Shown here in pieces: positions 5,674-29,287 of a DNA stretch of 32,000 nucleotides (positions are counted from its first letter, which is position 1; the number at the start of each line of letters is the position of its first letter). The notes below the pieces were generated by a model that did not search any database, was not told the DNA's origin, and saw only the letters and a program-made list of their open reading frames with translations. Origin of the DNA: Candidatus Electrothrix yaqonensis (lineage in GTDB: Bacteria > Desulfobacterota > Desulfobulbia > Desulfobulbales > Desulfobulbaceae); contig CP178758.1 in the NCBI GenBank assembly GCA_047651235.1, positions 2,010,001 through 2,042,000 of the forward strand, read 5' to 3'. A program made the position numbers and the translations under genes.

Positions 5674-5674
5674 A

Positions 5675-5788
5675 TTAAAAAATGTTGGAAATAGTTATCT
5701 GGTGATGAGGATGAACCTTTATGGAGTACAAGCCTTCGGTGGGGTGCGGTTCAAGGCTGAGGAGGTTGATGATTTCGTCCGATGTCAT
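5675..5788 (-). pseudogene. Stub of a DUF985/cupin-like gene (N-terminal about 20 codons, then unrelated tail)
   Basis: MTSDEIINLLSLEPHPTEGLY... resembles the cupin_5/DUF985 N-terminus (L-x-L-x-PHPEGGYF). A second copy of the same segment lies at about 6723-6800. Confidence 0.4.
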
Positions 5789-5832
5789 TGCAAACGTTTT
5801 GTTATCCAGGCAACGCGCCATAAAAGAAACAA

Positions 5833-6720
5833 TCACGCATTATTCTCCGCCTGCAAGGCCCGGATTTCTTCCTCTGTCAGATCAGTCATGTCCGCAACGG
5901 TTCTGATATCCAATGTGCCGATACGGAGGAGCTTTTGTGCTATTTGTACAGCTTTTTTCTTTTCCCCACGTTGTTCTCCTTCCAAAACAGCGGCGGTATA
6001 CGAGGATTCAAACATGCTTGCCTGGTAATGCAGGTTTTCCCGATATCGTTCGTAGGCTCGTCGCTCATTATCAGGAAGTTTCATGATATCAAGTTCGTGC
6101 TTGGCTTTTTCCAGGCCTCTTGCCTGAAATTCCTCCTTTATCTCCTCATTTTTGAGAAAATATATCCACTCGTCCAAGGTGTCTTTGGCAATATCGTTAA
6201 AGCTGTTCACCTTGATAAGGTAGTATTCCGGAAAAATCTGATGCACTTCCTGCTTCTGATAAAGGGCCTGCTGTTTTTTTGACAGCCGAAGAACATCCTG
6301 ATTATGGATACCCAGGAAAGAGGTCGAGCCGTGATAGACATAGTCTGTTCCCTGACCGAGATCAAAATAAAGGATATTCACAGAGATAACTTTGACCACA
6401 GCAGAATAGGGATCACCTTCCTGAAGATGCTCGGTAAGGACTTTGGAGGTGCCGAAGAGAATACGCTGGAGGTAATCAAGCTCGCGGTCGTACTGCACTT
6501 CGATGATCATCAGTTCATCTTGCTGGTTCCTGACCTTCAGATCCACCCTGTTGAACTTGTCCCGATGTTCTTCCTGATTGCCTTCGCTCTCAAGGATTTC
6601 CAGGATATGGATATCCTCTTTCAGGAGTTCGCTGAGAAAACCTTCCAGGATGTCGAAGTTTGCCTTGCTTCGCAGGAGCTTTTTCATGGCCCAGTCAAAG
6701 CTGATGAGTTTTCGTGCCAT
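5833..6720 (-). CDS. Rpn-family recombination-promoting nuclease / PD-(D/E)XK putative transposase
   Basis: 295 aa. The N-terminus ISFDWAMKKLLRSKANFDILEGFLSELL and the core VDLKVRNQQDELMIIEVQ (D...E-x-Q) match the PDDEXK_2/Rpn family as I recall it. The C-terminal HTH-like tail is LDIRTVADMTDLTEEEIRAL. Confidence 0.8.
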   Translation of the reverse strand: MARKLISFDWAMKKLLRSKANFDILEGFLSELLKEDIHILEILESEGNQEEHRDKFNRVDLKVRNQQDELMIIEVQYDRELDYLQRILFGTSKVLTEHLQEGDPYSAVVKVISVNILYFDLGQGTDYVYHGSTSFLGIHNQDVLRLSKKQQALYQKQEVHQIFPEYYLIKVNSFNDIAKDTLDEWIYFLKNEEIKEEFQARGLEKAKHELDIMKLPDNERRAYERYRENLHYQASMFESSYTAAVLEGEQRGEKKKAVQIAQKLLRIGTLDIRTVADMTDLTEEEIRALQAENNA

Positions 6721-6777
6721 AGTTACCGGTAGTATTCGTGGGTTCTGCGGAAATAGCCGCCTTCGGCAGGGTGGGGA

Positions 6778-6849
6778 TCAAGGCTGAGGAAGGCATTCCT
6801 CGGCGCGTTGCATACGGTGCAGCACCAAGTCCTTCTTCCATTCCGTCAC
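6778..6849 (-). pseudogene. HEPN partner stub (23 codons) left downstream of the MNT gene
   Basis: The GTG overlaps the MNT stop as GTGA, the same junction as at 29284. VTEWKKDLVLHRMQRAEECL resembles HEPN N-termini, then hits a stop. It partly overlaps, in another frame, a cupin-like reading FLSLDPHPAEGGYFRRTHEYYR (6723-6800). Confidence 0.4.
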
Positions 6850-7160
6850 AGTCTGACTGCTTCCTGCAGAACCTGCCGGTGGAAGGGCATAACCTGAAAG
6901 ATACCACTGTTCCACTCCTCACGATTCCACACGATTGAGGAAATGATCTCCCCGGACTCCCATTCTATTTCGTAGAGCCTGTGCCGGATTCGGTCCTTGC
7001 GTTCATCGCTGACATGACCGGGAACCAGAATAAGTAAATCCCAGTCTGACTCCCGGACGGCATCCTGACGGGCGCGTGAACCGTACAGCAGGGTCTCGGC
7101 ATCAGGTTCCAGTTCCAGAACAGCCTGTTTTATCTGATCAAGGAGCTTGTTACCGTTCAT
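6846..7160 (-). CDS. Minimal nucleotidyltransferase (MNT, antitoxin-type), apparently orphaned
   Basis: 104 aa with the Pol-beta NTase signature LLYGSRARQDAVRESDWDLLILV. Confidence 0.85.
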   Translation of the reverse strand: MNGNKLLDQIKQAVLELEPDAETLLYGSRARQDAVRESDWDLLILVPGHVSDERKDRIRHRLYEIEWESGEIISSIVWNREEWNSGIFQVMPFHRQVLQEAVRL

Positions 7161-7199
7161 AATATCTGCCTTTCAACATTGCACCGGAGCGACTTGTCA

Positions 7200-7349
7200 T
7201 GATGCGCATTGCGAACCTTTTCGGTGTATCCTGCACGGCTCCGGGTAAGAGAACGCCGTCTTCTGCTAAGGTGCCATTGTAATCACAGACAATGGTGGCA
7301 AGGGTGAGGGTGCCGAAATCAGGGGTTCCTTCAGGTGCTTAACGGTCAT
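7200..7349 (-). pseudogene. Frameshifted N-terminal remnant of a HAD-type (soluble P-type ATPase-like) hydrolase
   Basis: MTVKHLKEP, then in another frame PDFGTLTLATIVCDYNGTLAEDGVLLPGAVQD. The DYNGTLA motif is HAD motif I. The sequence is truncated before the MNT gene. Confidence 0.35.
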
Positions 7350-7374
7350 GCAGGGTGCGCACCTTTGCAGTTGG

Positions 7375-8466
7375 TTAATAGGCCATCATATCGTCCATCA
7401 TAGCGTCATCCATTGAATACTCATCATTTGTATTGTAATCTATAGCTATTATAAATGATGTTGCTTTTTTTCTTTTTTGTGACTCCATTTCTTTTATTGC
7501 TTTGTCCTGCAATAATGCAATTAACTGGTTTTTATCAATATCGTTATTGTTAAAATAACATATAAAATTCCCACGGCTGGGAACATCTAATTCTTCTGTA
7601 TTTTCAAGTTCAAAATAAATAAATATTACTCTCGGTTTTATCTTGAATGACTTAGAAGTCGCCTCTAATATAGCATACTCGACCTTGGAAAACTGTTCGT
7701 TTCTTAATTCATCAATATTAAGATAAAAAGTAACCAAATTAATATAATTTTTGCTCCAACCTCTGTAACCGATATATGAATCCCATCCGTATTTTTCTTC
7801 AATTATTTTCTGAGCAGATTCTATTTGTTGGGTTATTTCTTCATCTTCTTGAAAAAAATGAGAGCACAATTGAGAAAAATCTCTGTTTTTTATAGCCGTC
7901 ACAACTTGACTGACTATGTCTTGAGCAACTTGGGGAGAGGAAATAAAAAGTAACGAAACTATTGATCCGATAAATATTACCGGCAGAAAAAAGTTGGCAA
8001 TTAGCGACTTGAACCAGCTAATCTGATAAACGGCCTTCACAGCAATCAACGAAAGTAGCAGTCCGTATAGACTCATTAGTAGGAAGAGATATCCTACTAA
8101 AGGGGTGACCTGGGGCGATAACATAACAAGTCCGCTGATAATGCCGAGGGGAGCGGTATAAGCTGCTGTTACAAAAAGTAGTTGCTTATATGTTCCCGTA
8201 CCTCTTAAACAACGGGCTATCAGATTGATTATAAAGACATATATCGCTGTACATACCAGAGAGATAATACTCACAAAGGGGGCACATATGAGAGAGTCAG
8301 GTAACGAACCGATCAGTCCACCCATAAAAATCCACTTATATGCCCTGTTGCCGCTGACTGTGGAATCATTTTTTAGTTCTGCAAATGTTTTCACTGAGGG
8401 ATGCGTCACAGCTTGTTTCCAAGCCTCTTGCCATGTGTATGTTTTAGACTCAAGTTTATCAGTCAT
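7375..8466 (-). CDS. Hypothetical membrane protein: N-terminal Yip1-like 5-TM domain plus a C-terminal acidic soluble domain
   Basis: 363-aa ORF. It is visibly much more AT-rich than the flanking DNA. The Yip1-like assignment is from topology and the N-terminal pattern only. Confidence 0.6.
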   Translation of the reverse strand: MTDKLESKTYTWQEAWKQAVTHPSVKTFAELKNDSTVSGNRAYKWIFMGGLIGSLPDSLICAPFVSIISLVCTAIYVFIINLIARCLRGTGTYKQLLFVTAAYTAPLGIISGLVMLSPQVTPLVGYLFLLMSLYGLLLSLIAVKAVYQISWFKSLIANFFLPVIFIGSIVSLLFISSPQVAQDIVSQVVTAIKNRDFSQLCSHFFQEDEEITQQIESAQKIIEEKYGWDSYIGYRGWSKNYINLVTFYLNIDELRNEQFSKVEYAILEATSKSFKIKPRVIFIYFELENTEELDVPSRGNFICYFNNNDIDKNQLIALLQDKAIKEMESQKRKKATSFIIAIDYNTNDEYSMDDAMMDDMMAY

Positions 8467-8572
8467 AAGCAGTTCTTATTAAATCTATTCTATTTTCTGC
8501 TGTCAGGAGCAGTTCACAGGATCAATAAGTGAAATCCTTCAACGCTGGCAATCGTAAAGAGTCAGTAATTTT

Positions 8573-8809
8573 TCACTTATACCCCCCAACCCTCACATCC
8601 AGCACATCCACCAACCGCCCGTAATACTGATCCCGCACCAGGTCCAGCAGGGCGGCATAATCGGCCACGTTGACGGTGAGGTTGCTGACCGCTGATCCGG
8701 CAAAGCCCGGCAGGGTGTATTCGCCGTCCGCCGTGACGGTCACCGTCTCACCCGCAGGCCCGAAGGCTTCACACCAACTCCCAATCCTTAAACACCGGCT
8801 GATACCCAC
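8573..8809 (-). CDS. Hypothetical small ORF or fragment downstream of the thiH-tail remnant
   Basis: GC-rich reading TVTVTADGEYTLPGFAGSAVSNLTVNVADYAALLDLVRDQYYGRLVDVLDV. The annotated start lies inside the repeat, so the true start is unknown. Confidence 0.3.
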   Translation of the reverse strand: MGISRCLRIGSWCEAFGPAGETVTVTADGEYTLPGFAGSAVSNLTVNVADYAALLDLVRDQYYGRLVDVLDVRVGGYK

Positions 8810-8824
8810 TCTACCGGATTATCT
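8768..8824 (-). repeat. Duplicate of the last about 17 codons of thiH (direct repeat of 9026-9083)
   Basis: 45 nt are identical (ttcacaccaactcccaatccttaaacaccggctgatacccactct), and about 10 more match with 2 mismatches. It reads EIIR*SGYQPVFKDWELV* against thiH DMIRESGYQPVFKDWELV*. Confidence 0.85.
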
Positions 8825-8835
8825 CGATCTTGGAA

Positions 8836-9042
8836 TCAATCCTCATTTTTTCGCAATGCCATTGCCTTTTGACTAATTTCCTCAATGCTGCCCTCTTCTT
8901 CATCCAGTTCCCCTCGCCACTTTGTGTAGTCAAAGGGTTCCTGCTGAATCAAGGCAGCCAAACGCTCGGCGTTGAAATATCTCAACAAGCTGGAAAGAAA
9001 GCTGAACAGTTTCAAACGCCACCCTTTCACACCAACTCCCAA
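8836..9042 (-). CDS. Small hypothetical ORF lying between the two thiH-tail repeats
   Basis: 68-aa track ORF with a TTG start inside the thiH tail. The acidic C-terminal half is PFDYTKWRGELDEEEGSIEEISQKAMALRK. No SD or family recognised. Confidence 0.3.
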   Translation of the reverse strand: MGVGVKGWRLKLFSFLSSLLRYFNAERLAALIQQEPFDYTKWRGELDEEEGSIEEISQKAMALRKNED

Positions 9043-10136
9043 TCCTTAAACACCGGCTGATACCCACTCTCCCGGATCATATCCGCCACCTCATCCACGC
9101 TACGGTCATCAGTGACCTCAAACTGCACCGTGGCGTCAGCATGATTTTTCAACGAATATTCCCCTACCCCCGTCTTGGATCCGGAAGAGAAGCGGGTCGC
9201 GCCGAGATGAACCAGTCGGTCGCGGAAGGCAGCTGATTCGCGGGTTGAAATGGTGATGCCCAGCCGGGGCATGAAGAGCCGCCAGGCCAGCATGAACTGG
9301 ACAAAATCAATATCGGAAAGAATGTTTTTTGGTTCAATGATCCCCTTGGCCTTGGTCATTCGGGGCAGGGAGAGGGAAATCTCCACATCCGGGAATTCTT
9401 GCTCCAGCCAGCGGGCATGGAGCGCAGCCATACATGCCTCCCTGCGCGGTTCCCCCAGGCCGAACAGGGTGCCGATATTCAGGGCCCGGAAGCCTGCCCG
9501 TGCCCCGCGTTCCGGGGTCAGCAGGCGGTACTCGTAATCCGCCTTTCTGCCGCGCGGATGCACCTCTTTATAGATATTCCGATCATAGACCTCCTGGTAC
9601 ACGGTGAGTGAATCGGCTCCGGCCCGGCACAGCACCCGGTAGTCCTCCTCATCCATCGGGAAAATTTCCAGGGCAATGGATGAAAAGTATTTTTTCATCA
9701 CAGCGACTGCTGCTTCCAGATAGGATATCGGGGTCTTGGCCGGGGCTTCGCCGGTGAGGATCAGGATGTGGCGGATACCGGTGGCAGCAATGGCGGCAGC
9801 CTCCCGTTCGATTTCTTCGATGCTCAACTTGGTGCGGGGGAAATCCACGCCTGCATTGAAGCCGCAATAGGTGCAGAGATTGGAACAGTAGTCGGAAATA
9901 TAGAGGGGCGCGTACAGGCTGATGATATTGCCGAAATGCTGGCGGGTGAGCCGCTGAGCCTTGCGGGCCATTTCTTCGAGGAAATTGCGGGCTGCTTCAG
10001 AAAGCAGGTTCAGCAGGTCGCGCTGGTCCAGTTCCTCCCGCTGCAGAGAGTTGCGCACGTCCGCCGGGGTGACAGATTGAAAATATCCTTCAAAATCAAA
10101 ATTATCCAGTTCCAGAACGCGGTGCATAAAGGACAT
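9027..10136 (-). CDS. thiH: 2-iminoacetate synthase (tyrosine lyase), radical SAM
   Basis: 369 aa with the CSNLCTYCGF radical-SAM cluster motif. It lies downstream of thiS-thiG. Confidence 0.93.
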   Translation of the reverse strand: MSFMHRVLELDNFDFEGYFQSVTPADVRNSLQREELDQRDLLNLLSEAARNFLEEMARKAQRLTRQHFGNIISLYAPLYISDYCSNLCTYCGFNAGVDFPRTKLSIEEIEREAAAIAATGIRHILILTGEAPAKTPISYLEAAVAVMKKYFSSIALEIFPMDEEDYRVLCRAGADSLTVYQEVYDRNIYKEVHPRGRKADYEYRLLTPERGARAGFRALNIGTLFGLGEPRREACMAALHARWLEQEFPDVEISLSLPRMTKAKGIIEPKNILSDIDFVQFMLAWRLFMPRLGITISTRESAAFRDRLVHLGATRFSSGSKTGVGEYSLKNHADATVQFEVTDDRSVDEVADMIRESGYQPVFKDWELV

Positions 10137-10137
10137 G

Positions 10138-10935
10138 TCAGTTCCTCAGGAAACCGGTCAAAGGAGAAGATGCATCGGCGTATTCCTTTTCCTCGGCCAG
10201 CTGGGCCAGCCGGGCCATTCTGCCAGCCTGCACAGCCAGGGCAAAGGCCTTTCCGGCTACAACCGGATCATGACTGGTGGCAATGGCTGTGTTGACCAAA
10301 ACCGCATCTGCGCCCATCTCCATAGCCTCAGCCGCTTGGGACGGCCTGCCGATTCCGGCATCCACCACCACAGGCAGCTTGCTGACCTCAATGATCCGTT
10401 TGATCATCGGCTTCATCTCCAGGCCCCGGTTGGTACCGATGGGCGCGCCCAGCGGCATGACCGCAGCAGCCCCGGCATCGTGGAGCTGCTTGGTCACGGT
10501 GATGTCCGGCATCATATAGGGCAGGACGATAAAGCCCTCCTTGGCCAGAATCTCCGTGGCCCTGAGCGTACCTGCGTTATCCGGCAGCAGGTACTTCATG
10601 TCCGTGATCACCTCAATCTTGATAAAATCGCCGCAGCCTGCTTCGCGGGCAATCCGGGCGATGCGCACCGCTTCCTCGGCGGTTCTGGCCCCGGAAGTAT
10701 TGGGCAGAATGCGCACCGATTTGGGGATGTAGTGGAGGATATCCTTTTCCTTTGCTTTAGGATCCACCCGACGCAGAGCCACCGTGATCAGTTCCGAGCC
10801 GCTGGCCTCCAGCATAGGCGCGATGATCTCCCGTGAGGCAAACTTGCCGGTGCCGGTGAGCAGACGGCTGGCAAAGGGCACGTCGCCGAAGTACAGGGTA
10901 TCATCTGCCGGTTCAGGTTCAATATGCTTGGACAT
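10138..10935 (-). CDS. thiG: Thiazole synthase
   Basis: 265 aa with ThiG hallmarks ([51 protein letters not shown]). Confidence 0.95.
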
Positions 10936-11133
10936 TCATCCTCCTCCTACAAAACTGAGCAGCTCGACCGTGTCGCCCTCGTGCAGGGGCATCTGCTGCC
11001 AGTCTTCTTTTTTAATCAGCTGAAAATTGACCTCCGCAATCACGGCATCTGGATTAAAGCCTTTTTCCAAAACCATCTCGTGCAGGGTCCGGCCTGCTGT
11101 TGCTGTTTTCTCGCCGTTCAGCGTAATATGCAT
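10936..11133 (-). CDS. thiS: Sulfur carrier protein ThiS
   Basis: 65 aa starting at the internal Met of ORF 10936..11253 (MHITLNGE...) and ending in the canonical GG. It abuts the thiG start. Confidence 0.85.
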   Translation of the reverse strand: MHITLNGEKTATAGRTLHEMVLEKGFNPDAVIAEVNFQLIKKEDWQQMPLHEGDTVELLSFVGGG

Positions 11134-11269
11134 GATAATTGAAGAAACAAATTTTTTCAGTAACGAAAAAAGCTGAGTACTGAGTATGAAGAGCCTGACC
11201 GGGACTGCGCGAGACCGCAGCCTGCGGCAGAGCAGAGGAGGAGCAAGAAACAAAAGGGAACTCCTGCGG

Positions 11270-11370
11270 AGCGTTTATCACTGTTCCTACGACGGCATGA
11301 TCCGTATCAGGTTCCAAGGGTTGGAGCGGCTGCTCCTCTCAGCTCATACAAAAAGCACCCCCAGTGAAAC
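11270..11370 (-). promoter_or_regulatory. TPP (THI-box) riboswitch upstream of thiSGH
   Basis: The minus strand reads cactgggggtgctttttgtatgagCTGAGAggagcagccgctccaACCCTTgGAACCTGATacGGATcATGCCgtcgtAGGaacag. This matches the conserved GGGGUGC / CUGAGA / ACCCUU-GAACCUGAU-GGAU-AUGCC-AGG elements. Confidence 0.85.
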
Positions 11371-11552
11371 ACAGATCAATGTCTACCTGATTTCTTCGTG
11401 GGTTGTCAATGTAAATCAGGGGCGAGGCGGCAGGTGGAATATTTGACGGGTGAGGTTGTTCAGTTATGCTTCCGACCTCCTTTTTCAAAATTATTTCTTC
11501 ACTTTTCCCATAGAGGACGAATCTTTTCCGTCATTCGGTTGAAAATATCAGT

Positions 11553-11614
11553 ATCCGCAGCAGAGTCAGCGTGACCGAATCCCCGACCTTGTATTTCTCC
11601 TCCTCATCCCGCAG
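11553..11614 (-). repeat. Remnant copy of the htrA 3' region (PDZ-domain end), direct repeat of 12649-12711
   Basis: It reads LRDEEEKYKVGDSVTLTLLR against htrA LRDEVEKYQVGESVTLTLLR. About 62 nt align with one indel and several mismatches. Confidence 0.65.
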
Positions 11615-11697
11615 TGACAGGAAACCTATCTTTCAATTGTCGGCCGGAAGGTGTTATTACCCGAAGAACCCAGCCTGTTGTTGCTATCCTGACTGAG

Positions 11698-12594
11698 TCA
11701 TCTGCAGTACATTGAGAGTTTTTCCTCCTCATTGATCTCAACCGAAAGAAAGCCTGTAGTTTCTTCGGGCACACCGTCTCCGGTACAACCCGGCTCGCTG
11801 ATGGAATACGTTGCGGTACCGTTCCTGAAGGTCCAAATGCGATGAACACAGGGCCAAGTACCTTGAAACTCCATCGCATCGCAGTTTGCGTTGATCGTCA
11901 AATCCGGAGGGAACGACAAGGCTTTCGGAACGTTCCAAACCCTGTATCGATAGCTGCATGAACTGTCTGTATTGTCTGTATCGACAACGATCCGATACTT
12001 CGGAGTACGACAAACGAAATCGATAAGCCGTTCATCATTATGTTTTGCTTGCTGTTTGTCAGTCTGTAAATTTACGGTGCTGATGTAGTAGCTCAGGTGA
12101 TCATCAACTACCTCCGGTTTAACCCAGAGATCTCCCCTCATCCCATACATTACTCCTTGAGCACTGCATGAAATATGTTTCGTGTTGAGCACGGCCGTTC
12201 GTATGTATCGAGGAAAGATCTCGCTGAATCGATCCTGAAGTGCCTCCGGATCAAGAATTGTTATCGCACCGCGACCTGGTCCGCTCACTCGAAGGGGAAA
12301 CCTGGTAAGGAGTGCGACCTGTGTGACATCTCGGGCGGTGAGCGCAAGCCGCAACTCAGAATCGAACCTCCTGAGTTCTCCGGAATCCTGACCCTCAAGC
12401 CATCGTATATCGCAATCGTCAACGACAGATGAATTTTCTTTCGGTATTCGTGGAGATGGGGCGGTGTCAGCCCGCACCGGTGCTGCGGTCACGAAAAGCA
12501 GCATACAGGTTATCAGAATAAGACTTTGAATGGAGCCTAAAAGAGACATGTTATTGTAATCTCCAACAAATAGTTTGATAAATTTTTTACTCAT
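11698..12594 (-). CDS. Hypothetical exported protein (signal peptide, Cys-containing, no recognised family)
   Basis: 298 aa. AGGAGGGG lies 6 nt upstream of the ATG and directly follows the htrA stop. The hydrophobic leader is ...LILITCMLLFVTAAPVRADTAP. Confidence 0.7.
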   Translation of the reverse strand: MSKKFIKLFVGDYNNMSLLGSIQSLILITCMLLFVTAAPVRADTAPSPRIPKENSSVVDDCDIRWLEGQDSGELRRFDSELRLALTARDVTQVALLTRFPLRVSGPGRGAITILDPEALQDRFSEIFPRYIRTAVLNTKHISCSAQGVMYGMRGDLWVKPEVVDDHLSYYISTVNLQTDKQQAKHNDERLIDFVCRTPKYRIVVDTDNTDSSCSYRYRVWNVPKALSFPPDLTINANCDAMEFQGTWPCVHRIWTFRNGTATYSISEPGCTGDGVPEETTGFLSVEINEEEKLSMYCR

Positions 12595-12606
12595 AATTTT
12601 CCCCTC

Positions 12607-13725: not shown

Positions 13726-13743
13726 ATTCAGATATTCAGATAT

Positions 13744-15126: not shown

Positions 15127-15222
15127 GGAAAACTCCTCAAGACAGTTCTCAGTTCTGCTGCCTACTTTTATTCGTTCCTATTTTATTGCTGCATCGGAAT
15201 ATTGCTGTAACTGATCTTTCCT

Positions 15223-16030
15223 TCAGCTGAGCCTGACTATCTCCTGAAGGATTTGCTCAATAACTTCAGTATTGTAAATTTTCTTCTTTTTTCCGTTTCC
15301 TTTGATGGAATACACGAAAAACACCTTGCCGCCAAATTTCTTTGTGAACCGCTCGTGATTTCGGCGGTGCATTTCGAGTCATTGATATTTATTGACAGAC
15401 TGACCGGAGGTAACAGGTTTTATCTGAATGCCGATATAGTTTGAATTGATCTGAATGTAGAAATCAACACCGTAGTGCTCAGTCATAGCTAAGTTTTAGG
15501 ATTGCTATCTCCAAATAAGATACGAATATTAAACGAGTGCGACATGTTCAACCCTAAATTTTAGGCTTTACAAAGCAGTAGGTTCTGTCCCATTCATCCG
15601 GGGCAGGTTCTATTTCCCGGTTCAGAATGGATTCAAGCTGCCCGTAGACAGTGTCAATTTCTGCCCGGTATCCTTCATAGGTCCGGTTAAGCACCAGATT
15701 GTAGGCATAGTCGATACATTCCTCTTCGGATATCGCATTAAGTTCGCTGCGGATGACTTCGGATATTTTGATGTACAGGGTCTGACTAAGTCCTGTTATG
15801 TATTCCTTCGTAATTCTGAGACCTTCTTTTTTCTTCTGTCGGGCATTGCTGAAGTAAAAAGTCTCCCACTCCGCAAAACTGCCCGGAGCACAAGCCCGTA
15901 TCAGTTCAGATGTGGGGCCTACGCTGTATGCTTTGTTCAGCCCCCATCGGTTCATGCCGTAATTCAACAGAGTTTCCCGCCTGAATTTCAGATTTCGCCC
16001 CTCTGCACCGGAGATCCATTCTTTCTTCAT
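15223..16030 (-). pseudogene. Disrupted type II restriction endonuclease-like gene (cognate of the adjacent methyltransferase)
   Basis: The N-terminal piece is ORF 15554..16030, whose start overlaps the MTase stop. The C-terminal piece at 15223..15486 reads MTEHYGVDFYIQINSNYIGIQIKPVTSGQSVNKYQ*LEMHRRNHERFTKKFGGKVFFVYS. It has a D...Q-I-K (PD-(D/E)XK-type) core and an in-frame TGA at 15379-15381. All frames are closed between the two pieces. It is possibly MjaI-like, but that family call is from memory only. Confidence 0.55.
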
Positions 16031-17315
16031 TCTTGTCTCAAACGGAGAAATTTCTGTTTGTTTTTGTACTCGGTCTGCTCGTCAACAAAAACCAGTCCGT
16101 TTTTGATCAGATGGGCATTCAGAAAGGTTCTGTTTTTCAGGTATAAATAGCAGAGGAGGTTGTTGTCTTTATCGTGTTTGTCCCGGTCGAACCGCATGTA
16201 CACCTTCTGGTTTTTTGTTTTCCTCTGCAGAAATGCAACCGCATCCTGATTGCAGGCTGCGTCTTCTTTTATACCGATCAGCCGGACTGTCAGGCCGTTA
16301 CCGAGCTGAACAAGTTCCGGAGTAAGGACTGTTTTCACACTGTGATACTCTTCTCTTTGGCCGGAATCCCTGTTGATTTTTGAACCGAACTGCAGTTTTT
16401 CCGGATCGATTTTTTTATCAAACGCGTGAGGGTCTTTGAAAACATACGGGAGCCTGCTGATTTCCTCGGCAAAATCAACATCTAACTTGCCCTGTTCAGT
16501 AAACTCGTATTCCGCCCCCAATATTTCCACCTGATTGATCTGGAGCTTCTTTTTAATAAAGGGTATAAATTCAGCATTTATTTCATAGCCGACTGAATTT
16601 CTGCCGTTATTCTTTGCCGCCAGGGTTGTTGTGCCGCTGCCGAGGAACGGATCAAGGACAGTATCACCGACAAAGGAGAACATCTTGATCAGTCTTTTCG
16701 GTAGCTCTTCCGGAAACATGGCAATATGGCCGTCCTGCTTTGCCCCACGAAAATTCCAATGCCCGGCAAAGTACTCCTTCCATTCCTCCTTGGTCATTTT
16801 GGATAATTCTTTTATCTCTTTGGTCGCCTTTTTCGGGGTACCGAGCTTCTTGAAAAGGAGAATAAATTCATAATCAATAGAGAGAATACCATTGCGGGGA
16901 TGAGGAAAACTGCCCATGATGCTGGCCCCGCCTGTGGTATTAGTGGTTGTTTTTTTTGCCATATCACCGCCCCCATGTAGTCAAATCCGATGCTCTCACA
17001 GAACTTGATGATTTCCGTCCGGATCGGAATGACTTTATAGCGGCCGTAATAGACCGAACGGGCGAACTGATCCCCGATATTGATACAGAGCCTGCAGCCG
17101 TTATCGAGCACCCTGTGACATTCATTCCAGACAAGATTCAACGGGTTGATATAGCTTTCGTAGCTGTCATTGAAGCCTATCTGCTCCTCTGTGCCGTAAT
17201 CCTTCAGCTGCCAGTACGGCGGTGAGGTGATGACAAGATGAACGGACTTGTCGTTCAGTTCGTTCATTTTTCTGCTGTCGCCGCAGATAATCGTATGGCG
17301 TGTTGTCGTGTTCAT
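16027..17315 (-). pseudogene. Beta-class N4-C/N6-A DNA methyltransferase with a C-terminal SNase-like domain, split by a frameshift in an A8 tract
   Basis: ORF 16812..17315 carries motif IV (VITSPPYWQLKDY). ORF 16027..16962 carries motif I (DPFLGSGTTTLAA). The two join as ...GAVIWQKK/TTTNTTGGASIMGSF across the T8 run at 16950-16957. The C-terminal 130 aa (LTVRLIGIKEDAA...CYLYLKNRTFLNAHLIKNGLVFV) look thermonuclease-like. Confidence 0.8.
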
Positions 17316-17338
17316 GTAATCTGTGATTTTTTGTTTTT

Positions 17339-17539
17339 TCAGTCCAGCAGCCCGCTTCTCTGCCCGATAAAACAGAGGAGAAAGCCGATTCCCATTGCCA
17401 GTATCCCCATAACCCGCAGGCTGCCCGGATGCATCTCAGTGAGCTGCTTCAGCCAGCGCTGCATGGCCTCCGGCGAGGCGACATAGGGAACTCCTTCCAA
17501 TATAAGCACCAGTCCGATCAGAGTAATGAGCGTTTTCAT
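17339..17539 (-). CDS. DUF2065-family small membrane protein
   Basis: 66 aa with two TM helices. The pattern LILEGVPYVASPEAMQRWLKQL...LRVMGILAMGIG fits the DUF2065 pattern. Confidence 0.7.
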   Translation of the reverse strand: MKTLITLIGLVLILEGVPYVASPEAMQRWLKQLTEMHPGSLRVMGILAMGIGFLLCFIGQRSGLLD

Positions 17540-17593
17540 GATATAATCAGCCTACCAAATGAAATAAACTGTTGCAATCGTCATACAAACATA

Positions 17594-17623
17594 TTGACAA
17601 TGCACAGTAAAAAAAAGTAATCT
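17594..17623 (+). promoter_or_regulatory. Candidate sigma70-type promoter for purM
   Basis: TTGACA (17594-17599), an 18-nt spacer, then TAATCT (17618-17623). Sequence match only. Confidence 0.3.
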
Positions 17624-17731
17624 TATGCGGTTATCCGGCAGCCGAAACCGCAGGGAGGACAAATTCTCCAGCCCGGACAGGCAGATATCAGGGATACGGC
17701 TGCCTTTATTTTTTACCTGCAGACAGAACCA

Positions 17732-18793
17732 ATGACAGCACCTGAAACAGCAGCGTCAAAATACAGCGAAGCCGGTGTTGATATCGACAAGGGCAACGCC
17801 TTTGTCTCCCGCATCAAAGACATCGTTGCAGCCACCCACAGCCGCACGGTTCTTGATAATATCGGCGGATTTTCCGGCCTGTTCAGCATCGGCAATGCCA
17901 ACTGTAAAGATCCGGTCCTGATCGCCTCAACAGACGGTGTGGGCACTAAACTAAAAATAGCCCAACTTTGCAATAAGCACGACACGATCGGAATCGATCT
18001 CGTGGCAATGTGTGTGAACGACATCGTGGTCAGCGGAGCAAAGCCTTTATTTTTTCTGGATTATTTCTCCTCCTCCTCGCTTGATCTGGATGTGGCCACA
18101 GATGTGGTCAGAGGCATTGCCGAGGGCTGCAAACAGGCTGACTGTTCCCTGATCGGCGGGGAAACTGCCGAGATGCCCGGTCTGTATCAGCCCGGTGATT
18201 ACGATCTGGCCGGTTTCTCGGTGGGTATTGCCGAGCGCGATAAAATCATCGACGGCAGCGAGGTCCGGGTAGGCAATAGAATTATCGGACTGGCTTCCTC
18301 CGGGCTGCATTCCAACGGCTATTCCTTGGTCCGCAAAATCTTCTTTGAAGAACTTGGACTGACTGTGGATGATGAGGTCGAGGCGTTAGGCTGCACAGTG
18401 GGGGAAGAGTTGATCAGACCCACACGAATTTATGTGCAGAGCATTGTCCGGGGGCTGCGGAATTTCCGTATCAGCGCTCTGATTCACAATACCGGCGGTG
18501 GTTTCTGGGATAATATTCCCCGCGTCCTGCCCAAGGGCTGTCAGGCCGTGATTGAGAAAACAAGCTGGGAACGACCGAAAATTTTTGACTTTCTCCAAGA
18601 TAAAGGCGAGATTCCGGAAGCGGAAATGTACCGGACGTTTAATATGGGCATCGGCATGATGGCTGTCCTGCCGGATGATGATGTGGATTTTGCCCTGCAG
18701 CATTTTACAGCAATGGGCGAACAGCCCTTTGTGATCGGAGAAATCCGGCGCAGCAACAGCGGTCCGGCGGTAAGCATACCCGGACTCGATTAG
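17732..18793 (+). CDS. purM: Phosphoribosylformylglycinamidine cyclo-ligase (AIR synthetase)
   Basis: 353 aa. SKYSEAGVDIDKGN, DGVGTKLKIA and GGETAEMPG are typical PurM motifs. Confidence 0.97.
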   Translation: MTAPETAASKYSEAGVDIDKGNAFVSRIKDIVAATHSRTVLDNIGGFSGLFSIGNANCKDPVLIASTDGVGTKLKIAQLCNKHDTIGIDLVAMCVNDIVVSGAKPLFFLDYFSSSSLDLDVATDVVRGIAEGCKQADCSLIGGETAEMPGLYQPGDYDLAGFSVGIAERDKIIDGSEVRVGNRIIGLASSGLHSNGYSLVRKIFFEELGLTVDDEVEALGCTVGEELIRPTRIYVQSIVRGLRNFRISALIHNTGGGFWDNIPRVLPKGCQAVIEKTSWERPKIFDFLQDKGEIPEAEMYRTFNMGIGMMAVLPDDDVDFALQHFTAMGEQPFVIGEIRRSNSGPAVSIPGLD

Positions 18794-18817
18794 TTTCTTT
18801 CGCTGCACGGCAGGTTC

Positions 18818-19339
18818 TCAGAGATCTCGGAGAGCTGCGCAGTCTGCTGTTCCGCCCTTGAGCTTATAGAGCCCGTGGGTAAGGGCGGGCAGCACCACTT
18901 CAATATTTTCTTTTGCCGCCTTTGCACTGCCCGGCAGATTGATCATCAGGCTCTGGCCACGGATTCCGGCAATCCCCCGTGACCAGACCGCATTCCGGGT
19001 CTTGGCAAAACTCGCCTGCCGCATGGCCTCCCCGATGCCGGGTATCTCCAGCTCAATGACCCTGCGGGTGGCCTCCGGTGTCCGGTCGCTCGGTGACACC
19101 CCGGTCCCGCCTGTGGTGACGATCAGATCAATCTTCCGGTCATCTACCCACTCAATCAGGGTGGACTCAATCAGTTCCTGCTGATCCGGGATAATCGTAT
19201 ATACCTTGACCGTGAACCCCTGCGCTGTCAGGAGATCCCGGAGCAGAGGGCCGGAAGTATCCTGCCGCTTTCCGGCAGCCCCTTTATCGCTGATGGTCAG
19301 GACACCGCAGGTATATAATTTTGTGTCTGTGTTGTGCAT
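18818..19339 (-). CDS. mog: MogA/MoaB-family molybdenum cofactor biosynthesis protein
   Basis: ORF 18818..19366. The Met at 19339 is preferred because it avoids overlap with trmFO. GVLTISDKGA ... DLIVTTGGTGVSPSDRTPEAT is the MoCF_biosynth signature. Confidence 0.85.
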   Translation of the reverse strand: MHNTDTKLYTCGVLTISDKGAAGKRQDTSGPLLRDLLTAQGFTVKVYTIIPDQQELIESTLIEWVDDRKIDLIVTTGGTGVSPSDRTPEATRRVIELEIPGIGEAMRQASFAKTRNAVWSRGIAGIRGQSLMINLPGSAKAAKENIEVVLPALTHGLYKLKGGTADCAALRDL

Positions 19340-19362
19340 TGTACCTGTTACGTTTAGCCGGA

Positions 19363-20670
19363 TCAAATTTCCTTCCGCCAGTCCTCCAGCAGGTGCAGAG
19401 CCTGCTCTGCTCTGTATCTGCCCCGGTCCCGTTTGCGCATTTTTTTCTCCAGCAGCGGAAAAAGGCCGAAGTTGACATTGGACGGCTGAAAATGCGCCGG
19501 ATCAGATTGGGTCAGATGACGGATCAGCGCGCCATGAGCCGTTGTCAGAGGCGGCAGGTTTATCGATTTGTCGGTAAGGAATCGGGCTGCGTTGATGCCT
19601 GCCAGCAGGCCCATCGCCGCAGATTCCACATACCCCTCCACGCCGGAAAGCTGGCCAGCCAGAAACAGACCGGGCCGTTTTTTCATCTGCAGGGTGCTAT
19701 CCAAGAGTTCGGGAGCGCAGATAAAGGTGTTGCGGTGGATGGAACCGAGGCGGACAAATTCAGCCTGTTCCAAACCGGGAATGGTGCGGAAGACCCGTTT
19801 CTGCTCCGAATAAGTGAGCTTGGTCTGAAAACCCACCAGATTATACATGCTGCCCTGCCGGTTTTCCGCCCGCAGCTGGACCACTGCATAAGGTCTTGCC
19901 CCGGTTTCCGGATGATCCAGCCCGACCGGCTTCATCGGCCCGAAACGCAGCGTCTCCGGTCCCCGTTCACACATTACTTCAATCGGCAGACAGCCCTCAA
20001 AATACTTCGCCTTTTCAAAGGATTTCAACGGCACCGTCTGTGCGTCCTGCAGCAGGGCAATAAAGGCTGCGTACTGCGCCTCGGTCATAGGGCAGTTCAG
20101 ATAATCACCCGGCGTTTCGTCATCCCAGCGGGATTTCCGATAAATGATGTCCATGTTCAGCGAATCCGCTGCAACAATCGGGGCAATGGCATCGTAAAAA
20201 GCAAGATGCTTTTCCCCGGTAAACTCCAGCAGAGCAGCGGTTAGAGCCTCGGAGGTCAGCGGCCCGGTGGCGAGAATGACCGGTGTGTCCGGTCCGGGCA
20301 GGGCGGTCACTTCCTCCCGGAAAATGGTGATGCGGGGATGTTCCGCTATCGTTTTGGTGATCACGGCGGCAAACTGTTCCCGGTCCACGGCCAGAGCCGT
20401 TCCGGCAGGCACGGCAGTGCTATCCGCCGCCCGCATGATCAGCGAGTCCAACCGCCGCATTTCTTCCTTGAGTAGGCCCACTGCTGAGTCCACCGCGTTG
20501 GAGCGCAGGGAGTTGGAGCAGACCAGCTCACCCAGCAGTTCTGATTCATGGGCCGGGCTGAACCGGATCGGTTTCATTTCGTACAGCTCAACAGCGCAGC
20601 CGCGTTCCGCTGCTTGCCAAGCTGCTTCGCAACCGGCCAGCCCGCCGCCGATAATTTGTATTTTCTTCAT
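19363..20670 (-). CDS. trmFO: Methylenetetrahydrofolate--tRNA-(uracil54-C5)-methyltransferase (FAD/folate dependent)
   Basis: 435 aa with an N-terminal FAD fold ([19 protein letters not shown]) and an overall Gid/TrmFO pattern. Confidence 0.93.
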
Positions 20671-20984
20671 ATGTTAAATAAAAGCTGAACGAGAAAACTT
20701 CTGCACGGCCAAAACGATAATGGCCTTTGTCATGCCGCCACAGAAACATCGCTCCATTAATATGACTGATAATTTCCGAGAGGAGGGTAACTGCTGTTCC
20801 CGTTGAGACGCCATGAAACGACTCATAAAAATGCTCTGCTTCCGCTCCGGCATCTCACCGGTGCTCCGGACTTTCCGGACCGACTGGCAGACCGCCTGCT
20901 GTCCGGCGGTTGCGCCGTTCTGAAAATTATCAGAGTATTCTACGCATCTCCAGAACCTGGCTGACCTTTTGTGTAGCGGCAGTC

Positions 20985-21138
20985 AATCTCAAAAAAACAC
21001 CAGCAGATATACCGTAGCAAGGGCGATATGCATTGCCGCAAAGGGTAAGGCTTTGCGAACAAAACCGCCGAAGGACAGTTTGAGCTTGTGTTTATGAATA
21101 ATGGTGACAGCAACCAGGGTTGAAGCACTGCCGATGGG
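20985..21138 (-). pseudogene. Detached duplicate of the last about 50 codons of the permease gene (direct repeat of 21487-21640)
   Basis: 154 nt are roughly 90 percent identical by eye. It translates PIGSASTLVAVTIIHKHKLKLSFGGFVRKALPFAAMHIALATVYLLVFF*, against ...AALHITLATVYVLVFF* for the attached copy. Most differences are synonymous. Confidence 0.85.
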
Positions 21139-21155
21139 GGACTGTCGAGCAGTTC

Positions 21156-21413
21156 CTACGCAACTGCCCTTTCCCTTTTCGCTTTATTCTGTTGATTCCT
21201 TTTCGTGACAACGTACAAATTTTCTACCTTTGTCCTCGCCCAAGGTGTTTTTCGGAGGAATTTAAGGCTGGAATTCAACGTGGGATTATTAACAAAACAT
21301 CGTATCTTTGTCCAGCTTCCCAGTTTTTCCCAGCCGTAGCAATCAACAAGGAAATTGACGATGTCCTTTAAGGTTACACCGTGCAACGGGTCGTTCGGTT
21401 GTTCTTCACTCAT
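21156..21413 (-). CDS. VF530/DUF2132-family small putative DNA-binding protein
   Basis: 85 aa. [25 protein letters not shown]...[20 protein letters not shown] matches the family signature as I recall it. Confidence 0.75.
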
Positions 21414-21490
21414 AAGTCGGGCTGTTATTGTCTCAGGAAAAAGGAGTAGGGCTATGTGTCAGCCAATGATAATGTTTTTCTTTGTAAATC

Positions 21491-22867
21491 TCAAAAAAAC
21501 ACAAGCACATAGACCGTGGCAAGGGTGATATGCAGTGCCGCAAAGGGCAAAGCTTTGCGAACAAAACCTCCGAAGGACAGTTTGAGCTTGTGTTTGTGAA
21601 TAATGGTGACAGCAACTAGAGTGGAGGCACTGCCGATGGGCGTGAGGTTGCCGCCGAGGTTGGCGCCGAAGATCACGGACCACCAGAGCGGTGAGTCAGC
21701 TGCGGTTCCCTGGGCAGCAAGGATCTTGCCGAGCATGGCGGCCAGCGGAATATTATCCGTCACACTGCTGAAGGCAGCGGACGAGAAGAGCAGCGCACCG
21801 ATCCCGAAACGACTTTCCTCTTCACCGATAATTCGGGTGATGCCCTGGCCGATCAGTTCCAGCACCCCGGCGTATTCCAGCATATGGATCACCACAAACA
21901 GGGCCATGAAAAAGCCGATCAGGTCCCAGTCAACCGCTTTATAAAATTGGTCCACCTCATGCTTGAAGCGGATCAGCATGATGAGGGCAAAGGTCAGGGC
22001 CACGTAGCCCATGCCCAGACTGCTGACCACCGGCAGAACAGAGGTGGTGGCAATCACCAGAATGAACGCGCCCAGCATAATCGCACCGAACCAGAAGAAT
22101 CCCTGGCTCTCAATGCCGTCGTTCTCATCGAACCCGGCAACATGCTGCTTGGCTGCGGCGATCTCCTCGGCATCGCTCAGCTTCCTAATCCTGAAGAGAC
22201 GGGCACCCAGCCAGATGGTGGCACAGGTGGCCACGAGCACGTAGGGACTGGCCTTGAGGAAAAAGGTCATAAAGCTGATACCGGCGGTGGTGCCGATAAT
22301 GATATTGGGCACCGAACTGATCAGGGTGAGCAGGCCGCCGATATTGGTGAGTAGTCCCTCAATCAGCAGAAAGCCCAGCAACTGCTCTTCCCGCTGCAAC
22401 CGCTTCAGGGAGACTGCGGACAGGGAACCGACAATGATCATGGCGGTCACGTTGTTCAGCACGGCAGAAAACACCACGGTCATGATCCCGTAGTACCAGA
22501 GCAGCTTCAGGGGATCACCGCAGGAGAGCTTGGTGAGTTTAATGGCAATCCAGGTGAACAGACCGGAGCGGGAGGTCACATCGACAAAGATACTGGAGCC
22601 GATAATGATGGCGATCACGCCCCAGTCAATGGCTTCAATATACACCGGCATGTTGAGCGTATGCCCATTCGGCAGGGTAATCGGGCCAAAGGGCAGCAGG
22701 CCCAGTGCCCCGTCCAGCAGCAACAGAGCTGCGGCAAACAGGCCAACGATCAGGGATTTTTTGGCGTGTATCTTTTCTTCCAGTGCCAGAGAGACGATCA
22801 GCAGGACAAGAACACCGGTAAAAAAAATGGTGGTGCCATGCGAGGCATGGGTAACGGCATGTTCCAT
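21491..22867 (-). CDS. ArsB/NhaD-superfamily (SLC13-like) ion/anion permease
   Basis: 458 aa and polytopic (about 11-12 TM). It has the duplicated hairpin-type motifs NNVTAMIIV and GGNLTPIGSASTLV. Confidence 0.75.
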   Translation of the reverse strand: MEHAVTHASHGTTIFFTGVLVLLIVSLALEEKIHAKKSLIVGLFAAALLLLDGALGLLPFGPITLPNGHTLNMPVYIEAIDWGVIAIIIGSSIFVDVTSRSGLFTWIAIKLTKLSCGDPLKLLWYYGIMTVVFSAVLNNVTAMIIVGSLSAVSLKRLQREEQLLGFLLIEGLLTNIGGLLTLISSVPNIIIGTTAGISFMTFFLKASPYVLVATCATIWLGARLFRIRKLSDAEEIAAAKQHVAGFDENDGIESQGFFWFGAIMLGAFILVIATTSVLPVVSSLGMGYVALTFALIMLIRFKHEVDQFYKAVDWDLIGFFMALFVVIHMLEYAGVLELIGQGITRIIGEEESRFGIGALLFSSAAFSSVTDNIPLAAMLGKILAAQGTAADSPLWWSVIFGANLGGNLTPIGSASTLVAVTIIHKHKLKLSFGGFVRKALPFAALHITLATVYVLVFF

Positions 22868-27973: not shown

Positions 27974-28275
27974 ATGATCCGCATCTGCCTGCGGGAAGAA
28001 GTACATCGTCTGCTTCCTGATGCGAAAGTAATTCTGCACGGTTCCCGTGTCCGCCAATGCAACCCGGCAGGATTCTGACTGGGATTTTTTGATCATCGCT
28101 GATCATCCGTTGGACAGAGAGATCATAACAAAGCTGAAGGATGGGCTGTATGACATTGAGTTGGAAAATGATGAGGTGGGTGAGCAGCATTATACGGAGC
28201 AGGCAGGAGTGGTCTTCGCCTGCATACGATGCCTTGCTGTTCAAAAAGGCGGTGGAGAAAGAGGGTGTAGTGAAA
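27974..28275 (+). pseudogene. MNT nucleotidyltransferase pseudogene, copy 1 (altered 5' end, two frameshifts)
   Basis: MIRICLREEVHRLLPDAKVILHGSRVRQ, then a shift at cgccaat (about 28051-28056) to ANATRQDSDWDFLIIADH... A second shift comes from an extra g in gaggtgggtgagc (about 28176-28180). Confidence 0.75.
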
Positions 28276-28956: not shown

Positions 28957-29287
28957 ATGGTAACTTATTTGGTTAATCAGGTCAAGAACCTGCATCAGGT
29001 GCGGGAGGAAGTACATCGTCTGCTTCCTGATGCGAAAGTAATTCTGCACGGTTCCCGTGCCCGCCAATGCAGCCCGGCAGGACTCTGACTGGGATTTTTT
29101 GATCATTGCTGATCATCCGCCGGGCAGAGAGATCATAACAAAGCTGAAGGGTGGGGTGTATGATATTGAACTGGAAAATGATGAGGTGGTGAGCAGTATT
29201 ATACGGAGCAGGCAGGAGTGGTCTTCGCCTGCATACGATGCGTTGCCGTTCAAAAAGGCAGTGGAGAGAGAGGGCGTAGAGCTGTGA
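28957..29287 (+). pseudogene. MNT nucleotidyltransferase pseudogene, copy 2 (full length, single frameshift)
   Basis: MVTYLVNQVKNLHQVREEVHRLLPDAKVILHGSRAR, then a shift at cgccaat (29051-29057), then ANAARQDSDWDFLIIADHPPGREIITKLKGGVYDIELENDEVVSSIIRSRQEWSSPAYDALPFKKAVEREGVEL*. Removing one C gives a spacing identical to the intact MNT at 6846..7160. Confidence 0.75.

Follow-up and report, generated by a model that had tools for sequence, protein, structure and literature searches.

Diverged copies of core-gene segments flank accessory genes in the cable bacterium Candidatus Electrothrix yaqonensis YB6

Cis-mobilizable elements (CIMEs), as described in the literature on ICESt1 and CIMEs, are integrase-less derivatives of integrase-mediated islands that occupy gene 3' ends between attL and attR sites and are mobilized in trans. 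Insertion with long target duplication (Nobusato et al. 2000; Furuta et al. 2010, PMC2853133) has been described for restriction-modification (RM) systems. According to PMC2853133, the inserts lack a mobility gene, occur mostly in naturally competent species, and are flanked by repeats of variable length above 30 bp, which are mostly 93 to 100% identical and often overlap a gene 3' end, and the mechanism is left open. Homology-facilitated illegitimate recombination (HFIR) has been proposed for the displaced or orphaned 3' ends found in type VI secretion system, Rhs, and contact-dependent inhibition effector arrays (PMC5361080). The microcin H47 island is small and recombinase-less and excises through short direct repeats (PMC3191183, PMC5426353), and Rpn/YhgA promotes RecA-independent transfer (PMC5350276). 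We analyzed 32,000 nt of the Candidatus Electrothrix yaqonensis genome, YB6 (contig CP178758.1, positions 2,010,001 to 2,042,000 of the forward strand; hereafter the window), where accessory genes at four loci lie between imperfect direct repeats of core-gene segments. As the best-supported reading, we consider it somewhat probable that these structures are scars of homology-anchored recombination that inserted accessory genes beside core genes.

The first-pass annotation of the window had proposed that accessory genes are bracketed by direct repeats copied from the end of the adjacent core gene, and the observed repeat architecture was confirmed as real. Window positions 5000 to 22500 were scanned for direct repeats with 30 first-order Markov simulations of this region as the null, and the window was compared with 80 fetched loci centered on mgtE (13744-15126, minus strand, Pfam), whose orthologues in other Electrothrix genomes are 88 to 91% identical. 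The four proposed pairs were borne out with little change in position. Their ungapped scores (permease, 239; thiH, 101; htrA, 82; cupin, 44) were far beyond the simulated maxima of 24 to 30, and no further direct repeat above the null was found in the scanned region. All genes of the four loci are located on the minus strand (Pfam).

The longest of these repeats, a pair of 157 nt with 90% identity, is derived from a CitMHS/SLC13 permease gene (21491-22867, 458 aa, as in the orthologues P0001 and P0002). The proximal tail (21484-21640) belongs to the intact gene and comprises the final 50 codons with the stop codon and a further 7 nt. It is followed by cargo 4 (21139-21483), which carries a VF530 (DUF2132) gene at 21156-21413 (Pfam PF09905, E = 1.4e-31), and then by the displaced tail (20982-21138), next to trmFO (19363-20670, minus strand, Pfam). 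The displaced tail differs from the proximal tail at 15 positions, and its reading frame is open to a stop at the homologous position; at the codon level, the differences amount to 11 synonymous and 3 conservative nonsynonymous changes.

The htrA pair spans 64 nt and is 87% identical with one indel. The proximal segment (12648-12712, codons ~338 to 358) lies inside the intact htrA gene (12607-13725, minus strand, Pfam), and cargo 3 (11616-12606) contains x298 (11698-12594), which encodes a predicted exported protein of 298 aa with no Pfam match. The x298 gene starts 12 nt after the htrA stop codon, with a ribosome-binding site of its own, and is an ORFan, as the sole match among 5.8e9 proteins is the identical protein of Ca. 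Electrothrix sp. YB6. Both sides of the displaced htrA copy (11552-11615) are truncated; it represents an internal fragment in which the final 13 codons are missing and a single nucleotide is deleted. The thiH pair spans 58 nt and is 95% identical, with its 3' 45 nt identical between the copies. Here the proximal tail (9026-9083; last 18 codons, stop codon, and 1 nt) of the intact thiH gene (9027-10136, Pfam) is separated from the displaced tail (8768-8825; 3 differences) by a 200-nt insert, cargo 2 (8826-9025), which retains the 3' portion of a small antitoxin-like gene. Between thiH and x298 lie thiG and thiS (minus strand, Pfam).

At these three loci the core gene is intact and the second copy sits beyond the cargo, as had been proposed: thiH (369 aa), htrA (372 aa), and the permease gene (458 aa) are full length with complete domains. 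Some details differ from the proposal: the displaced htrA copy is internal, the displaced thiH copy carries an in-frame stop, and the cupin copies at the fourth locus belong to no intact gene.

The same architecture recurs among cable-bacterium genomes, at the end of htrA in three and at that of an HI0933-like flavoprotein gene in two. The htrA end is duplicated around three different cargoes, namely, in YB6, in Desulfobulbaceae S24.Bin023 (L002), and in the closed E. laxa chromosome (L005). In L002 a 202-nt repeat with 95% identity surrounds an AAA_14/DUF4143 ATPase gene that is encoded on the opposite strand; in L005 a repeat of ~54 nt encloses a 1.7-kb insert with three unknown open reading frames (ORFs). 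The end of the flavoprotein gene, ~5.5 kb beyond the htrA site, is duplicated in L004 (131-nt repeat) around a trypsin-PDZ protease gene and in L006 (81-nt repeat) around a gene for a 113-aa unknown protein. Empty sites were seen for htrA in L003, L004, L006, and L048, for the flavoprotein gene in L005, and for the permease in E. communis and JGI contigs, which have a single tail; the DNA downstream of the window loci is not syntenic with that of the empty-site genomes. A uniform self-comparison of the loci gave approximately 1 gene-end repeat per 20 to 25 kb of cable-bacterium DNA and 1 per 150 kb in other Desulfobulbales, densities that are rough and biased, since the window was chosen for this feature and the loci surround one hotspot. 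Similar cases in Desulfobulbales other than cable bacteria were found in L028, L060, L109, L120, and L134. The direct repeats of L028 (2248-2466/5180-5398) and L060 (9160-9454/11956-12260) are 220 to 308 nt long, 86 to 89% identical, and ~2.5 to 3 kb apart, and they overlap gene ends. The phenomenon thus extends beyond cable bacteria.

The two copies of most pairs have the character of alleles. Pairs were compared codon by codon, and pN/pS was pooled over the pairs of the window and of related genomes. The ratios of synonymous to nonsynonymous differences were 11:3 for the window permease, 16:0 for the flavoprotein gene of L004 and 8:1-2 for that of L006, and 6-7:4, 5:3, and 4:2 for htrA of L002, the window, and L005, respectively. 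Pooled, there were 50 synonymous and 17 nonsynonymous differences over 176 synonymous and 529 nonsynonymous sites, giving a pN/pS of 0.11 (binomial p = 2e-17). The pS values of 0.12 to 0.51 are comparable to the between-species divergence within Electrothrix. The differences run along the whole repeat and affect even the stop codon, as in L002 (TAA/TAG), and, in the permease, the 7 nt past the stop, and the displaced htrA tail of L005 has an in-frame deletion of 6 nt (2 codons) that keeps the stop codon. Because the differences are mostly synonymous and spread over the repeat, and because the one deletion of 2 codons is in frame, the copies are read here as functional alleles; because the differences span the whole repeat, each copy is one allele throughout. 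It follows that each copy of these pairs evolved as the end of a functional gene in a lineage of its own before recombination placed the two together.

These counts bear directly on a long target-site duplication formed in place, by staggered cuts or replication error, and followed by drift or by replacement with the allele of a relative. This corresponds to the original idea of insertion with long target duplication (PMC2853133), and two window loci agree with it: the thiH pair resembles an old duplicate decaying in place, and the permease copies are mutually closest in a comparison of four sequences, in which 7 informative sites to 0 unite them to the exclusion of E. communis and the JGI relative. 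However, drift predicts ~3 nonsynonymous changes per synonymous change, whereas 50 synonymous and 17 nonsynonymous changes were seen overall and 16 and 0 in L004, and one copy carries an in-frame indel. Replacement after duplication would leave the cargo-proximal edge identical, but the differences reach the stop codon and beyond. In L004, moreover, the sister species are closer to the displaced copy than its own partner is. We therefore regard this explanation as very improbable. An ordinary tandem or target duplication decaying in place is excluded for most pairs by the pooled pN/pS, with the thiH pair as the exception.

The pairs were further compared to see which copy is the resident one. 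The displaced copy of L004 matches tails of sister species at 123/131 and 122/131 positions, compared to 115/131 for its own partner. In the window htrA pair, the displaced copy has the K and D residues that are the consensus of other species, and its identity is 53/61 to the proximal copy and 51 to 53/61 to the tails of other species. Of the window permease copies, the proximal one shows 8 unique changes and the displaced one 2. In these three cases the data, although the counts are small, fit a displaced copy that is the resident allele and a functional tail that would have come with the cargo.

Co-assembled relatives would also be expected to give synonymous, allele-like differences, so chimeric strain or species variants in metagenome assemblies have to be considered. 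Only two Logan runs carry the YB6 genome. The arrangements permease-VF530-tail-trmFO and htrA-x298-tail-thiS are 100% identical in the independent Logan assemblies of these two sequencing runs, showing that the repeats at two loci persist on reassembly. The Logan contigs do break in the thiH repeat, as an artifact might suggest; they break there because the copies share 45 identical nt. The YB6 contig has a length of 3.74 Mb, the same architecture occurs in the closed E. laxa chromosome and in metagenome-assembled genomes of unrelated studies, and the orthologous thiH insertion is present in a JGI contig of another species. Moreover, a tail-cargo-tail order is not a product of a graph chimera. 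An assembly artifact is accordingly extremely improbable.

The thiH locus departs from the allelic pattern. All 3 differences of the displaced tail are nonsynonymous (ratio, 0:3), and one of them is an in-frame stop. An orthologous insertion, with its displaced tail present, occurs in L091, a metagenome contig of another species with a thiH that is 87% identical; its insert is longer and contains an intact ORF of 64 aa, while the YB6 cargo has lost its 5' end via a deletion of ~95 nt. The thiH copies have lineage-specific variants in common within each of the two genomes (window and L091). Because the pair is common to two species and the variants are shared within the genomes, this indicates an old pair, with probable gene conversion between the copies and decay in place. 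In L101, a more distant relative, a homologue of the cargo follows a PIN-domain gene downstream of thiH without duplication, and the thiH cargo is for this reason most likely a decayed toxin-antitoxin module.

Two further features were noted near thiH. At positions 4050 to 4220 of L101, from thiH to the PIN-domain gene, there are ~5 tandem copies of a ~23-nt unit (CGTGATACGTATCATGACGCTGC-like). In the window, a Yip1-domain gene (7375-8466, minus strand) has a G+C content of 30 to 42%, compared to a genome mean of 51%. It is not present in L091, which is otherwise syntenic from thiH to the Rpn gene, and a flanking repeat was not detected around it. The Yip1-domain gene is probably a recent foreign insertion.

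Locus 1, the fourth pair, consists of real but rearranged remnants and is no clean case. The repeat of 32 nt (5732-5763/6759-6790, 88% identical) is part of two remnants of the N terminus of a Cupin_5 (DUF985) protein, neither of which lies in an intact gene. Remnant A (6727-6790, minus strand; Pfam E = 0.0087, profile positions 7 to 23) covers aa ~6 to 30, LSLDPHPAEGGYFRRTHEYYR with a terminal stop, and remnant B (5675-5790, minus strand; Pfam E = 0.079) covers aa 1 to 19 and then continues into unrelated sequence. Between them is cargo 1 (5833-6720, minus strand), a gene of 295 aa for an Rpn-type PD-(D/E)XK nuclease ("transposase"; Pfam PDDEXK_2, E = 1.1e-25). The remnants are permuted, with aa ~6 to 30 upstream of the Rpn gene and aa 1 to 19 downstream, and a spliced reconstruction of Cupin_5 gave a Pfam E value of 6e-5. 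The end of remnant A, which is joined to a HEPN remnant of 21 codons, is separated by 5 nt from the start codon of the Rpn gene; remnant B is directly upstream of glnS (3985-5673, minus strand, Pfam). An Rpn orthologue with 91% identity is located downstream of thiH in L091.

The HEPN remnant (6778-6848, 21 codons, VTEWKKDLVLHRMQRAEECL) corresponds to the N terminus and directly follows an MNT nucleotidyltransferase gene (6846-7160, minus strand, Pfam). Its assignment was made by eye, as Pfam gave no match for the 23-aa peptide; the MNT/HEPN pair appears to be broken at the junction with the cupin remnant. In L091 the 5' head of the Rpn gene is duplicated over 37 nt (5999-6035/6900-6937) around two small ORFs of 110 and 143 aa without Pfam matches, a mirror image of the tail duplications, and the truncated Rpn head has the same upstream context as in the window. 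The toxin-antitoxin island of the window has three repeat copies (27990-28270, 29000-29279, and 30135-30362) of 230 to 280 nt that are 92 to 93% identical. These were considered as gene-end repeats and rejected, as they are instead MNT (NTP_transf_2) fragments or paralogues on the plus strand, with TumE-like, RelE/HTH, and MNT/HEPN modules of the minus strand lying in between.

A permuted or terminally redundant arrangement resembling locus 1 was also observed within the htrA insert of E. laxa. This insert contains a nested direct repeat (r/r') of 49 nt with 92% identity (L005 12809-12857/14178-14229), which is the 5' head of a 171-aa ORF and again stands just before the displaced htrA tail.

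Such arrangements would be explained by small circles, carrying a cargo and one gene-end copy, that would form by recombination between repeats and re-integrate by a Campbell-type single crossover at the same gene in another cell, so that the gene end would serve as a portable attachment site requiring no recombinase. The circles would give the exact architecture, account for two alleles per genome and for the foreign displaced copies of L005 and L006, and accommodate both locus 1 and the r/r' repeat of L005. The variants shared within two genomes also point to thiH copies recombining with each other. However, integration by single crossover predicts copies that are two-part mosaics, and the differences are instead even over the repeat. 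Homologies of 32 to 64 nt are marginal for RecA-dependent integration, the origin of the first cassette is left unexplained, and none of the proposed circles was observed. The first-pass annotation had invoked circular intermediates, for which the analyzed loci gave no supporting evidence, and we consider re-integrating circles unlikely.

We additionally examined the boundaries of the inserts and searched for a machinery that could have formed them. According to Pfam, the examined window ORFs and the related inserts include no integrase, transposase, or reverse transcriptase within or beside an insert, the Rpn gene aside, which is the only nuclease-type gene and is itself the cargo of locus 1. 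This agrees with the earlier observation that no cargo encodes a classical recombinase. By inspection, the eight junction pairs have no k-mer or motif in common, and no consistent hairpin was present at the cargo ends. The upstream edge of the repeat varies even at the same gene, lying at -200, -106, and -54 nt for htrA and at -131 and -81 nt for the flavoprotein gene. The repeats range from 32 to 202 nt and the inserts from 0.2 to 1.9 kb, with cargo in either orientation. On the cargo side, homology ends just past the stop codon, where orthologues of different species cease to align. The cargo boundaries are within 0 to 100 nt of the ORF, so that the cargoes are compact whole genes, and their G+C content is 41 to 50%, compared to 55 to 63% for the core genes. 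Some neighboring insertions are not bracketed, namely, the RM system at 15.2 to 17.3 kb and the chorismate mutase (CM_2) gene of E. communis.

The density of cases had been taken to suggest a systematic trans-acting mechanism. Because there is no motif, hairpin, or recombinase and the boundaries vary at the same gene, a single dedicated trans-acting enzyme is disfavored, and the occurrence of insertions without repeats also speaks against a single mechanism. Three specific candidates were rejected. A common att core is contradicted by the junctions, which share no motif. Integron gene cassettes would have an attC-like hairpin at the cargo ends and an integrase, neither of which was found there. 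A diversity-generating retroelement does not fit substitutions of all types that are not adenine specific, and no reverse transcriptase domain was present in the scanned ORFs.

A related possibility is that the inserts are integrase-less miniature islands, CIME-like or satellite, in which an attP with a replacement 3' end is used by a tyrosine or serine recombinase acting in trans. These islands leave the same classical footprint of a gene with an element-borne tail, cargo, and displaced native tail, and purifying selection on the element-borne tail fits a pN/pS of 0.11. The reuse of the same genes in different species and the compact, cassette-like cargoes of whole genes point in the same direction, as does the observation that the copies begin with 7 to 14 identical nt at the upstream edge. 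However, identity over 7 to 14 nt is expected by chance at ~10% divergence, and that edge, which would be the crossover core, is not constant at htrA or the HI0933-like gene. There is no recombinase in or next to any of the ~10 instances and no shared motif or inverted repeat. Duplicated 5' heads and permuted arrangements occur as well, and several cargoes are only 0.2 to 0.4 kb. We consider an origin as CIME-like islands unlikely.

Insertion by homology-anchored recombination would need no element-encoded recombinase. In this model, DNA from a diverged relative, another Electrothrix lineage, would carry the same core gene with a different next gene and would pair with the resident chromosome via the core gene. 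The incoming piece would bring its own allele of the gene end together with the cargo, and its far end would join within the resident gene at a point a few tens to 200 nt short of that gene's end, either illegitimately (HFIR-like) or via a tail copy that the donor already had. The product would be a core gene with an intact tail, the cargo, a displaced tail of the other allelic origin, and the resident downstream DNA. A mirror event at gene starts would yield duplicated 5' heads, and reversed polarity or permuted order could result from secondary events or from Campbell-type integration of circles. The displaced end could then act as a short homology arm for cargo loss, gene conversion, and spread by ordinary homologous recombination; as a right-hand arm, it could allow a cargo to reach lineages with different downstream synteny. 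The end of the cargo-side homology after the stop codon is expected under this model, because the donor would have had a different downstream neighbor. Also in its favor are the repeated use of the same gene ends with different cargoes and repeat lengths, the absence of a recombinase or junction motif, the lower G+C content of the cargoes, and the matching footprints in the literature. The analysis shows the two-allele nature of the repeats, their recurrence, and their variable boundaries; as no donor arrangement was found, the one-sided anchor and the illegitimate join are inferred, and so are the direction of transfer and the mode of DNA entry.

Several observations weigh against homology-anchored recombination. 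A donor with the exact core gene-cargo arrangement was not found among the compared loci, and a plausible counterpart without duplication was seen only for the thiH cargo, in L101. Sliding-window identity upstream of the repeats (htrA, flavoprotein gene, and usp-permease) revealed weak mosaicism and no clear imported tract. The polarity is not uniform, as the displaced copy is the outlier in L005 and L006, which would need a donor that was already bracketed or a Campbell-type event. Gene-sized cargo boundaries are unexpected from random breakpoints, although selection could produce them, and the finding that all repeats are at most 202 nt requires the additional assumption of a fast loss of long repeats. 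The permuted locus 1 and the r/r' repeat of L005 are not simply explained. Finally, the thiH pair, with only nonsynonymous differences, indicates an exception to the allelic pattern.

A bolder extension is a recombinase-free cassette system in cable bacteria, in which copies of gene heads or tails serve as portable homology arms; we consider this improbable. If it were true, compact single-gene units would excise, spread among Electrothrix lineages, and re-insert at the same core gene regardless of downstream synteny, and the abundant Rpn-type PD-(D/E)XK nucleases together with DNA uptake might promote the movement of the cassettes. This would amount to a lineage-wide, homology-addressed analogue of integrons, with sharp cargo boundaries, such as those of VF530, as a property of the mechanism and not of selection alone.

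The VF530 cargo provides additional information on the source of inserted genes. The insert consists of the ORF and ~70 nt of its own upstream region, with a G+C content of 41 to 45%, and its homology to other Electrothrix VF530 loci stops at the stop codon. In another Electrothrix species, VF530 has its normal place between a HisKA (histidine kinase) gene and kdtA-comEC, and it is conserved with 82 to 91% identity among close relatives. Judged from these comparisons, VF530 is a conserved Electrothrix gene and not a foreign one. At such loci comEC (DUF4131-Competence-Lactamase_B) is located two genes downstream of VF530 (L170 6999-9284, L171 3479-6148, and L172 3230-5926), which hints at possible DNA uptake by cable bacteria.

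Two of the neighboring insertions lack flanking repeats. In E. communis (L086, closed genome), the permease gene is followed by the CM_2 gene (11378-11820), which lies between the permease and thioredoxin-like genes with no tail duplication; 433 nt here take the place of 55 nt in the JGI relative, and genes of the Rpn-type PDDEXK_2 and PDDEXK_9 families are 7 to 9 kb upstream. The RM system of the window (15200-17331) is situated between mgtE and a divergently transcribed selD-like gene. It comprises an MjaI-like endonuclease gene (15554-16030) and an N6/N4 methyltransferase in two overlapping ORFs (16027-16962, with an SNase domain, and 16812-17315). No direct repeats were found to flank the RM insertion, and six other Electrothrix genomes are without it.

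The entry of accessory genes without the machinery of mobile elements is poorly understood, and how long target duplications arise has been an open question since 2000. The allelic nature of the copies points to recombination with diverged relatives as a source. Cable bacteria, of which there is no pure culture yet, have recurrent hotspots that make them a good natural system for studying this process. For annotation, displaced gene ends are pseudogene fragments and should not be called genes, and short-read assemblies break at them. With respect to the initial proposal, the part that stands is a second gene-end copy brought in by recombination without an element-encoded recombinase, whereas a single trans-acting mechanism and circles are not supported.

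Compared to CIMEs, the loci share an attL/attR-like pair that is the 3' end of the target gene, with what would be an element-borne copy that restores the gene. They differ in that there is no nearby integrase and no constant crossover, the cargo is far smaller, and 5' heads are duplicated too. With the microcin H47 island and Rpn systems, they have in common a possible mobility or deletion through flanking repeats without an element-encoded site-specific recombinase and the presence of Rpn-family genes in cable-bacterium loci; the Rpn gene of the window, however, is itself a cargo. A paper on the acquisition of toxin-antitoxin genes makes no mention of flanking duplications.

The HFIR arrays offer a closer parallel. 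As in the arrays, a conserved stretch would anchor the incoming DNA, a new module would take the functional position, and the old 3' end would remain downstream as a scar, and the alleles within one genome would come from different strains and not from duplication. The allelic difference over the whole copy fits this pattern, as does the resident-like displaced copy in L004, the permease, and the window htrA, but no clear donor tract extends upstream of the repeats, and the polarity is reversed in L005 and L006. In contrast to the arrays, in which a variable toxic C terminus is exchanged with its immunity gene, the gene end here is conserved and the cargo is an unrelated neighbor. The core genes are also housekeeping genes (htrA, thiH, and the flavoprotein gene) rather than polymorphic toxins.

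Insertion with long target duplication, as described in PMC2853133, shares direct repeats of more than 30 bp (157, 64, 58, and 32 nt in the window and 202, 131, 81, and 54 nt in relatives), single-copy empty sites (here for htrA, the HI0933-like gene, and the permease), and inserts of less than 20 kb without a mobility gene (here 0.2 to 1.9 kb). The published cargoes are RM systems, whereas no RM cargo is bracketed here and the MjaI-like RM insertion has no repeat; the cargoes are instead VF530, an ORFan, toxin-antitoxin remnants, an ATPase, a protease, and an Rpn nuclease. The repeats are 87 to 95% identical with allele-type synonymous divergence, a feature that PMC2853133, as far as it was consulted, does not analyze. 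The phenomenon thus belongs to a known, poorly understood class, to which the Electrothrix loci add cargo other than RM systems, a high density with recurrence at hotspots, and copies that are allelic in character.

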